Part shown: positions 484 to 4,143 of the stretch, in pieces | How the letters are laid out: every line of letters begins with the position of its first letter | Numbering within the stretch: position 1 is the first letter of the stretch | Origin: Patescibacteria group bacterium | GTDB lineage: Bacteria; Patescibacteriota; Patescibacteriia; Veblenbacterales; UBA10138 | DNA: 52,090 nucleotides | Assembly (NCBI GenBank): GCA_041645215.1 | Contig: JBAZQK010000001.1 | Coordinates: 1-52,090, forward strand | Reading direction: 5' to 3' | Notes under the pieces: generated by a model | Seen by the model: only the letters and a program-made list of their open reading frames with translations | Databases searched by the model: none | Told to the model about the DNA's origin: nothing | Translations under genes and position numbers: made by a program

Positions 484-534
<51 letters not shown>

Positions 535-609
535 GAAATATTACTAACTCTATCAAGTTAGCGGCGATCTTGTCGCCCTGCATGTCGCCATGCAGTCTGA
601 ACTCTATCT

Positions 610-1176
610 TCACTCCCGCCGAAACGGAGTGGTTGGCGTTTGGTTTCTGAGGATTCTAATTAAATTATTTTTAGATTTTTTATGATTCATTTGCTCCGAT
701 AATTTAAGTATCTTAATTAATCCTTTTCTCTCTAAATGCTTATTTTGACTCATCATTCTTACACACTGAGCAAATAACCTAAAATCATTATTCTTACTGG
801 TTTGTAAGTGGTGTTTCTCAAAGAAAGGGATAATCACACGCAGAAGATCTGCTCTTTTTCTAACAGCATACCGGTATAAATGTTCTTTATGATTATCATG
901 CCTTTGATTTAGGTATAAATTACCAACTCCAAAAAAGTTTCTAACTTTTTTCAAAGAGGATAAACTCTTCATACCTTGCGTGACGGCAAATTCATGCCAT
1001 GCTTGCACACCCATTCTATAGCCACGTCTTATTCGTAAAGACTCTTCTCGATCTGGTTGTTTTATAAAACCAATCGAGAAACAGCCCTCACCATCTACAA
1101 ATCCAACTATCCAACCTAATTTAATTAGTCTTTCCTGCTGATTGTCTGCACTAGTAGCATTATTACTTGTCGACAT
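610..1176 (-). CDS. Single-motif LAGLIDADG homing endonuclease (intron-encoded)
   Basis: Motif WIVGFVDGEGCF, 188 aa, inside the intron; its N- and C-terminal codons overlap the ribozyme Q and R elements. Confidence 0.95.
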   Translation of the reverse strand: MSTSNNATSADNQQERLIKLGWIVGFVDGEGCFSIGFIKQPDREESLRIRRGYRMGVQAWHEFAVTQGMKSLSSLKKVRNFFGVGNLYLNQRHDNHKEHLYRYAVRKRADLLRVIIPFFEKHHLQTSKNNDFRLFAQCVRMMSQNKHLERKGLIKILKLSEQMNHKKSKNNLIRILRNQTPTTPFRRE

Positions 1177-1182
1177 AATTTA

Positions 1183-1191
1183 ATTATATCA
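1183..1191 (-). promoter_or_regulatory. Extended -10 (TGnTATAAT) 6 nt before the homing endonuclease ATG; likely leaderless internal promoter
   Basis: Minus strand reads TTGATATAAT-TAAATT-ATG. Confidence 0.5.
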
Positions 1192-1410
1192 ACCTGTAGC
1201 TCTAGATTCAACAGAGTTTCCAGCATATAGCCAACTATTTTAAGACCATAGCACTATTGCGCTATGAGGCAGCTATTCCTATTTACTGCTAACCATTTAC
1301 CTGTTTATAACCGTCCCAGTCCTTCTGAAATCCTATAATACACCAGAATTCCAGAACCTTAGGACGGTTATAGTTACCGCCGGCGTTCATCAGCGCTTCA
1401 GTTCAAGGCT

Positions 1411-2317: not shown

Positions 2318-2421
2318 CCCCGCACTAATTCTAATCTCAACTATTTAAAATTTTACCAACATTCCCCTATAAAACTTACGGCTTATTGTAAAATTGTGTT
2401 GAGAACAAAATTAGTGCGGGG
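2318..2421 (-). repeat. 23S insertion at helix 45 (~1175), a classical IVS site
   Basis: Perfect 13-bp stem CCCCGCACTAATT/AATTAGTGCGGGG. Confidence 0.8.
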
Positions 2422-2504
2422 TCCACAAATTCGGTATTCAGCTTGAGCCCCGATACATTTTCGGTACCAAGTCGCTGGACCAGTGAGCTGTTACGCTATC
2501 TTTA

Positions 2505-3829: not shown

Positions 3830-4143
3830 TTCGGTGTTTTCTTTTCCTCTGGGTACTTAGATGTTTCAGTTCCCCAGGTTACCTTCATAACCCTATGTAT
3901 TCAGATTATGATGTTACGATCTTCCATCGTAACGGGTTGCCCCATTCGGACATCTCCGGATCAAAGGTTGCTTGCCACCTCCCCGAAGCTTTTCGCAGGC
4001 TGCTACGTCCTTCATCGTCATTCCATGCCAAGGCATCCACCATTTGCACTTGTTGCGATTTAACCACAAGAATGAATACTTAATATTCATCTTTTACTAA
4101 TAATTGTTCGTATAACTTTGCTTGATTTATATTTACCTATTCA

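Follow-up and report, generated by a model that had tools for sequence, protein, structure and literature searches.

Group I introns recognise their 5′ exon, in the textbook account, through one short helix, P1. The locus examined here raises the question of why an intron in a 23S rRNA gene carries, in addition, 13 nucleotides complementary to helix 69 (H69) of the rRNA that it interrupts, and which part of the intron holds the 5′ exon. The stretch of DNA that we analysed (the window; 52,090 nucleotides) lies at a contig end and includes genes for DnaA, a class A penicillin-binding protein, trigger factor and an H+-pyrophosphatase. Its 23S rRNA gene is on the minus strand, from 3646 to 1, where it is interrupted by the contig end, and is the only 23S rRNA gene match found in this Patescibacteria genome of 1.17 Mb in 26 contigs. 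An insert of 822 nucleotides (1355-534, minus strand) separates the equivalents of E. coli U1931 and A1932, with the junction placed by alignment to the LSU model. Besides this insert, the 23S rRNA contains three large variable-region insertions (1413-1540, 1650-1800 and 2330-2440, minus strand), and a separate 5′ fragment that matches the 5.8S model is found at 3895-4051, about 250 nucleotides upstream of the LSU match.

The explanation that we favour, and that as a whole we hold to be probable, takes the insert, from its sequence, to be a group I intron at 23S position 1931 and a member of a Patescibacteria-centred group of L1931 introns, denoted class B below. A cmscan with the Rfam model Intron_gpI (RF00028) gave a weak match, confined to the 3′ half of the core (30.9 bits, E = 8e-6, compared to a gathering score of 50); the score falls under the threshold because the open reading frame splits the intron core. 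The core helices were assigned by hand, namely P3 (1235-1230/637-632, in which GUUGGC complements GCCAAC), P4-J4/5, P7 (649-642/604-599) and P8 (630-612), and they align with those of more than 60 relatives. The J3/4-P4 motif UAUAUGCUGGAAA is common to the window intron and other L1931 introns, and the endonuclease is encoded by a single-motif LAGLIDADG gene. Rfam scans of 450-1450 yielded no match to a group II family, even at E <= 10. The core of the intron is laid out as follows.

1180-1235, minus strand: 5′ strand of P3 (1235-1230, GUUGGC), J3/4, P4 (1224-1220) with J4/5 and P5, and the rest of the P4-P6 domain; boundaries approximate.
610-1176, minus strand: LAGLIDADG homing endonuclease open reading frame, 188 aa, LAGLIDADG_1 (PF00961, E = 9e-20), extending into the 3′ half of the core.
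599-649, minus strand: 3′ half of the core, with the 5′ strand of P7 (649-642), the 3′ strand of P3 (637-632), P8 (630-612), J8/7 and the 3′ strand of P7 (604-599), from Rfam and relatives.
534-598, minus strand: P9 region (three hairpins) and intron 3′ end, with U534 as last base, from comparison with relatives.

The initial annotation had described a 13-nucleotide pairing between the intron and H69 with a U.G at U1926, and both the pairing and its numbering are correct on the minus-strand sequence: exon UAUAACCGUCCUA (1372-1360, E. coli 1915-1927) complements intron UGGGACGGUUAUA (1318-1306) over 13 bp, with U1361 (U1926).G1317 as the single wobble. U1356 (U1931) is the last base of the 5′ exon and U1355 the first of the intron. 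The hairpin at the splice site, for which 11-12 bp had been claimed, has 12 bp counted from intron +1, or 13 if U1356-A1323 is included. The minimum free energy of the segment 1384-1296 in RNAfold is −35.2 kcal/mol, compared to −19.1 ± 2.6 kcal/mol for 200 dinucleotide shuffles (z = −6.09, with 0 of 200 shuffles as stable), and the optimal structure is the one that the annotation had drawn. The elements of this 5′ module are listed below.

1360-1372, minus strand: 5′ exon 1915-1927, the loop and 3′ strand of H69, forming the exon strand of the antisense helix (helix C); 91.7% of cells paired across 51 homologues, with covariation at 1921.
1324-1355, minus strand: splice-site hairpin (hpA) from intron +1, with stem 1355-1344/1335-1324 and loop 1343-1336, from the fold and covariation.
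1323, minus strand: single unpaired A between this hairpin and helix X (described below); the first spacer base is A in 56, U in 3 and C in 3 of 62 sequences (~90% A).
1306-1318, minus strand: 13-nucleotide antisense guide UGGGACGGUUAUA, the intron strand of the antisense helix, from the fold, the homologues and a duplex energy of −18.4 kcal/mol.

Further downstream, the intron contains a second segment that is complementary to its exons, and it is this segment that supplies what the initial annotation had taken to be missing, a U.G pair at 1931. The heptamer GCUGCCU (1273-1267) occupies the position of the classic L1931 guide and is followed at once by a P2-like hairpin, then an A-rich joiner and P3/P4. 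G1270, located 86 nucleotides into the intron, wobbles with U1931 (U1356), 1269-1267 pair with G1930, G1929 and A1928 to give a 4-bp P1, and G1273, C1272 and U1271 pair with A533, G532 and C531 of the 3′ exon to give a 3-bp P10. The guide GCU-R-CCU is found in every class B member and, as the exact complement of AGGU|AGC in the ligated exons, qualifies as a textbook internal guide. In 13 short relatives, RNAalifold likewise paired the GCU of the conserved AGCU-R-CCU to AGC, the start of the 3′ exon. Among 51 homologues, the splice-site pair is U.G in 30 and U-A in 21, and P1 is paired in 97.5%. The P10 pairing of GCU with AGC fixes the splice junction at 1931|1932, and hence the 3′ splice site at U534|A533, so that cleavage at 1926, which had been raised as an alternative 5′ site, is rejected; U1926 pairs inside the antisense helix, adjoining a junction. 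The corresponding elements are the following.

1356-1359, minus strand: 5′ exon AGGU (1928-1931), the exon strand of P1, with the 5′ splice site between 1356 and 1355; 97.5% paired in the family.
1267-1273, minus strand: internal guide GCUGCCU, the exact complement of the junction AGGU|AGC.
531-533, minus strand: 3′ exon AGC (1932-1934), P10 partner of 1273-1271, from alignment and from RNAalifold in relatives.
1274-1305, minus strand: linker of 32 nucleotides from antisense guide to internal guide (7-115 nucleotides in relatives), in which no conserved structure was found.

Within the local minimum-energy fold of the window copy, GCAG of the linker (1286-1289) pairs with CUGC of the guide (1269-1272), a pairing that could sequester the guide; the CU of the guide is also open to competition from the base of the P2 hairpin.

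To find relatives, we used pattern searches. A scan of one genome per prokaryotic species required the exon sequence up to U1931 followed by any base but A, disregarding the intron sequence. Among the 120 L1931 loci recovered, 64 had the classic guide GCCUUAG, which forms a contiguous 7-bp P1 with CUAAGGU; 26 were mostly classic variants with a P2-like hairpin after a shorter GCC(UU) guide, together with a few cut-off records; and 30 belonged to class B (31 with the window). The class B layout consists of a hairpin from intron +1, two spacer bases, GACU, and then R-GGAC-N-GUUAUAG. Where the hosts are named, they are Paceibacterota, Saccharibacteria, Nomurabacteria, Yonath-, Taylor-, Buchanan- and Kerfeldbacteria and Minisyncoccia, with one labelled Gammaproteobacteria. 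A scan of metagenomes added 40 class B loci; its pattern (non-G at exon 1921 plus GACU-RGGA) inflates the conservation of the selected bases and leaves the partner of 1921 and the far pair of helix X unconstrained. In all, the antisense segment recurs in about 70 introns inserted at 23S 1931, almost all of them from Patescibacteria (CPR). When 401 genomes were sampled evenly across the phylum, about 12-13 had the motif (18 matches, of which four or five were false, in intron-less genes), and 92 of the 401 had an uninterrupted 1931|1932 junction. A BLAST search with the whole intron against 400 genomes of the phylum found no close relative of the 5′ module; the similarity was to the endonuclease gene and core at other sites, or to classic L1931 introns.

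Pairing statistics were calculated from a MAFFT alignment of 51 sequences (A2), which, being relatives, are not independent. The exon is invariant except at 1921, which forms the variable stem pair of H69 with 1909. Exon 1921 and its intron partner are CG in 21, GU in 17, GC in 4, UA in 2 and AU in 1 of the aligned sequences and unpaired in 6, so that all four Watson-Crick types occur; 1921 is mismatched in 11 of 62 unique members, including those 6. The covariation for which the initial annotation proposed to test homologues with differing H69 sequences is thus observed at 1921, in a segment that about 70 introns conserve. Positions 1915-1927 are paired in 77-100% of members, compared to 49% at 1914 and 16% at 1913, and U1926 faces G in 38 of the 51 sequences and A in the other 13. 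As the exon is invariant outside 1921, the support for P1 proper and for most of the antisense helix comes from conservation and complementarity and not from covariation. The splice-site hairpin shows double compensatory changes in all 10 pairs tested (its first pair is UA in 48 and CG, GC and UG in 1 each).

A further helix, here termed helix X, links this 5′ module to the strand leaving P2. It joins the second spacer base and the GAC that precedes the antisense segment with the four bases that follow the P2 hairpin:

1319-1322, minus strand: 5′ strand of helix X, GGAC, pairing with 1246-1243; 100% paired in the alignment.
1247-1266, minus strand: P2-like hairpin (hpB), stem 1266-1261/1252-1247, a covarying hairpin.
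1243-1246, minus strand: 3′ strand of helix X, GUCU, from covariation in the family.

In the family, helix X is GGAC/GUCC in 47 sequences, AGAC/GUCU in 6 and UGAC/GUCA in 4, with G.U variants in the window and a few others, and its strands are fully complementary in 61 of 62 unique sequences. A Watson-Crick end pair occurs in 59 of 62, compared to a maximum of 52 in 2000 shuffles under a best-match search. The end pair in the 51-sequence alignment is GC in 39, AU in 6, UA in 4 and GU in 2, with the helix 100% paired. The internal loop of AGG and GGAC in the annotated fold is thereby resolved, with AGG(U) pairing to the guide and GGAC to the GUCU after P2. For the model of four helices, 94.9% of cells are paired in the 51 sequences, compared to 81.0% after shuffling (reached in 0 of 500 replicates) and 35-42% with slid partners, and the covariation score is 0.416 vs. 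0.138.

Two other partners for U1931 were considered and rejected. The G of the invariant GACU could serve as wobble partner, at the cost of an A.G mismatch and a bulged A1927, but its GAC covaries with the GUC after P2 and the canonical guide lies downstream. Pairing of U1931 with the spacer A, extending the hairpin as in the RNAfold optimum, leaves AGG and GGAC unpaired, whereas the comparative data pair both; it might exist as a transient co-transcriptional state.

The strands of these helices run on from one to the next. The exon strand is continuous from the end of the antisense helix (A1360-U1318) to the start of P1 (A1359-U1267), and the passages from guide to P2 (U1267 to C1266), from P2 to GUCU (G1247 to G1246) and from GGAC to the antisense segment (C1319 to U1318) are free of gaps. 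On this topological argument from the pairings, the antisense helix, P1, P2 and helix X would meet in a four-way junction without an unpaired base. The splice-site hairpin would then bridge the far ends of P1 and helix X (4 bp each), with U1356 running directly into U1355 and A1323 as the sole unpaired base, and would take the place of the normal P1 extension. In class B, the GGAC strand and the antisense guide could accordingly be viewed as inserted sequence that interrupts the 3′ strand of the P1 stem-loop across from the splice site. The pairings of the exon with the antisense segment and with the guide cross in sequence order, so that the fold is pseudoknotted. The linker of just 7-10 nucleotides in the shortest relatives is a point against the four-way junction model.

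Comparison of the helix energies suggests which pairing carries the exon. The calculated values are −2.8 kcal/mol for P1, −18.4 for the antisense helix and −7.5 for the H69 hairpin, such that the antisense duplex exceeds H69 in stability by about 11 kcal/mol. Given the values for P1 and the antisense helix, the latter most likely holds the 5′ exon. It takes up the whole 3′ strand of H69, and H69 therefore cannot form alongside it; the energies and the full use of this strand agree with the proposal of the initial annotation that the pairing would melt H69 in the precursor.

We consider it likely, judging from the sequences, that the class B intron has a split, two-segment hold on its 5′ exon. 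The short guide GCUGCCU (P1, later P10) and the 13-nucleotide antisense segment would together grip the exon, and pairing of GGAC (1322-1319) with GUCU (1246-1243) would link the 5′ module with the strand that exits P2. The antisense helix, in its modelled role as most likely the main anchor of the 5′ exon, would give most of the binding energy, keep the exon on the ribozyme between the two splicing steps and position the weak P1, and the unfolding of H69 in the precursor would be a necessary side effect. Once the exons are ligated, the intron would be base-paired to 20 consecutive exon nucleotides, and product release would probably depend on the refolding of H69, on proteins or on a helicase. 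CPR rRNA transcripts have been reported to lack insertions of this kind (PMC11270868).

The last base of the window intron is U534 (C535 in the other register) rather than omega-G, and the guanosine-binding pair of P7 is A645-U600 rather than G-C; with this combination, the splicing chemistry of the window copy is uncertain. All seven introns with the A-U pair in P7 (CAGAAACC/GAGUUC), namely the window intron and L010, L043, L081, L156, L164 and L178, end in U before AGCG. Where a G-C pair was recognised in P7, 74 unique introns end in G, 8 in A and none in U. A U.A-U base triple in place of G.G-C would fit the U-ending introns, but this is speculation. A terminal G is lacking from about a quarter to a third of class B introns (examples are L060, L111, L151, L152, L155, L163, L173, L175, L180, L181 and L188), and many of these end in A, often as ...CGAAA|AGCG, with a normal G-C pair in P7. 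Several introns of the classic L1931 type also end in A, C or U.

At the short end of the family's size range are ORF-less class B mini-introns (178-260 nt) that have no P4-P6, with the 5′ strand of P3 followed directly by J6/7 and P7 (L004, L017, L018, L026, L027, L028, L042, L047, L055, L062, L065, L066, L076, L088, L089, L104, L153, L157, L159 and L185). The two that were checked against Rfam, L065 and L027, are missed at the gathering threshold, as is the window intron. In 21 mini-introns the guide is GCUACCU and the splice-site pair is U-A instead of U.G. In all 36 members whose guide has G, more than 75 nucleotides separate the guide from the downstream P7, enough to accommodate P4-P6 by this criterion of distance; direct inspection of the domain covered some of them. 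The mini-introns also conserve RAGGAAU in the last hairpin loop before the terminal G (columns ~314-321 of alignment A1), complementary to AUUCCU of the 3′ exon (1938-1943), and this loop is possibly an extra clamp on the 3′ exon; as the pairing is absent from the window copy, it was not retained as part of the finding. A longer P10, in which the 3′ strand of the splice-site hairpin would pair with 3′ exon 1935-1941 (a potential 7 bp in the window copy), was also considered and rejected, given that it occurs only in a subset with GGUUUC-type hairpins and not family-wide. Three introns of 338-356 nt (L156, L164 and L178) have kept the first ~25 nucleotides of the endonuclease frame (GCAGAC-AUCAGCAGGAAAGAC) and lost the rest. 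In short BLAST matches, these 22-25 nucleotides recur with 96-100% identity in the phylum's rRNA introns at other insertion sites, and this sequence identity suggests that the endonuclease start may be conserved as RNA as well as protein.

Beyond its part in splicing, the complement of 20 bases (1915-1934) could allow a free intron to re-bind nascent or mature 23S rRNA at H69, where it would either reverse-splice into intron-less copies or act as an antisense brake on 50S maturation in slow-growing episymbionts; we regard this as unlikely. If true, reverse splicing would be an endonuclease-independent means of spread and would explain the many ORF-less members. The related proposal, that the long guide exists to serve mobility at the RNA level, with the free intron pairing to 20 bases (1915-1934) of an intron-less 23S rRNA and reverse-splicing specifically, is compatible with the two-segment hold, and we give it a somewhat lower probability still. 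It is consistent with the occurrence of many ORF-less members (178-300 nt) across many CPR lineages and with a guide that complements the ligated junction without interruption, and reverse splicing of group I introns into rRNA is established, with a natural guide that is short (PMC1299323 and references listed in PMC3984707). However, the ORF-less members are mostly devoid of P4-P6 and their splice-site pair is A-U rather than G.U, so that their catalytic competence is doubtful; the window copy, with its intact LAGLIDADG gene, has no need of such a route; and neither a cDNA step nor a reverse transcriptase is evident.

The mutual exclusion of H69 and the antisense helix, with the duplex more stable by about 11 kcal/mol, could also be read as a checkpoint, in which the melted H69 (bridge B2a) stops unspliced 50S precursors from joining 30S subunits and the excised intron may stay on H69 and damp translation. 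Introns of Coxiella reportedly associate with ribosomes. Similarly, when the Tetrahymena intron is inserted into E. coli 23S rRNA, it is found in association with 50S subunits and growth is slowed (PMC3984707). Yet the 822-nucleotide insert between 1931 and 1932 already disables the bridge region, to which a melted H69 adds nothing obvious, and the classic L1931 introns of other bacteria do without H69 pairing. The incorporation of the antisense segment in a junction with P1 and P2 argues, moreover, for an architectural role within the ribozyme, and we consider the checkpoint very unlikely.

It is more improbable again that the 13-bp helix and the 12-bp hairpin are a signal for a host nuclease such as RNase III, the insert being removed without ligation as in bacterial intervening sequences. 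The window copy, like about a quarter to a third of its relatives, has no terminal G, and fragmented 23S rRNAs are tolerated by many bacteria (PMC4990558). The helix, however, pairs exon with intron near the 5′ end only, and not both ends of the insert as in RNase III-type intervening sequences, whose long stem lies in H25 or H45 and which have no ribozyme core; a cut inside it would destroy H69; and P3, P7, P8 and the guide with P10, none of which a nuclease substrate needs, are present and conserved at site 1931.

Chance complementarity, or a relic of an intron formerly spliced at U1926 (the L1926-type guide suggested in the initial annotation), is hardly credible at all: the window copy does have U1926.G, but about 70 introns conserve the pairing with covariation, the fold has z = −6.09, no AAGGU follows the intron, and the relic is excluded because U1926, paired inside the helix next to the junction, has A as its partner in a quarter of members (13 of 51).

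The two-segment hold can be placed beside several known systems. L1931 introns are known from Simkania, Thermotoga, Synechococcus and organelles and have been described as IC1-like without P2 (PMC1995217). The classic L1931 introns share with the window intron the site, the PF00961 gene, the J3/4-P4 motif UAUAUGCUGGAAA and the P7/J8/7 motif AAGAUAGAGU, and a guide just before the P2-like hairpin or J1/3. They differ in having one contiguous 7-bp P1 (GCCUUAG with CUAAGGU) and nothing that pairs with H69, whereas P1 of the window intron has 4 bp and a guide of GCCU only, with an extra hairpin, GGAC and the 13-nucleotide antisense segment between splice site and guide, and GUCN after P2. In group II introns, IBS1-EBS1 is backed by IBS2-EBS2, such that two intron segments each bind one of two neighbouring stretches of 5′ exon. 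As in that case, the pairing proximal to the splice site is short and a second pairing adds affinity and specificity; the resemblance is functional only, since the ribozyme class differs and the second pairing here has 12-13 bp, vs. ~6, and is joined to P1 via the putative four-way junction.

Engineered trans-splicing Tetrahymena and Azoarcus ribozymes (Koehler et al. 1999) provide another comparison: an added antisense-region duplex backs the short P1 and strongly raises efficiency (reviewed in PMC6155759). That antisense region is man-made, is located at the 5′ end of the ribozyme, is separated from P1 by an internal loop and has 35 bp or more; the antisense segment in the window is natural, has 13 nucleotides and binds the exon upstream of P1 with no loop. 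Tsurumaki et al. (2024; PMC11270868) catalogued CPR rRNA insertions with an Rfam model, including 23IS7 at position 1931, host of I-ShaI, and characterised the enzyme. 23IS7 belongs to the same phylum-level group as the window intron and shares its site and the presence of a LAGLIDADG_1 gene in a group I-like insert; the terms 'internal guide' and 'helix 69' are absent from the text of PMC11270868, and the RNA architecture given here is not in it. In full-text literature searches, no L1931 or CPR intron was described as having a split guide. The Coxiella burnetii intron Cbu.L1917, reportedly the subject of Raghavan et al. in 2007, is said to interrupt the H69 region of 23S rRNA as a group I intron whose last base is A and not the canonical G. 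It thus resembles the window intron in the region and in the non-G end, and differs in its site, 1917, and in that no split guide is reported for it.

L1931 introns themselves being already known, the canonical short guide, the GGAC/GUCN helix and the junction model would be the additions made here from sequence comparison. They correct the annotation, with the guide ~85 nucleotides into the intron and not at the splice-site hairpin. Taken together, these findings indicate a large natural family in which P1 would have been cut to 4 bp and most of the binding energy moved to a separately encoded helix of 12-13 bp, so that class B would be a natural counterpart both to the two-part recognition of group II introns and to engineered extended guides. 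The antisense helix would also offer a concrete, mutable structure for the competition of an intron with a folding rRNA helix, H69, which is the central inter-subunit bridge. Finally, as the family includes members without P4-P6 and without a terminal G, it may be a good system for defining the minimal needs of a group I ribozyme.
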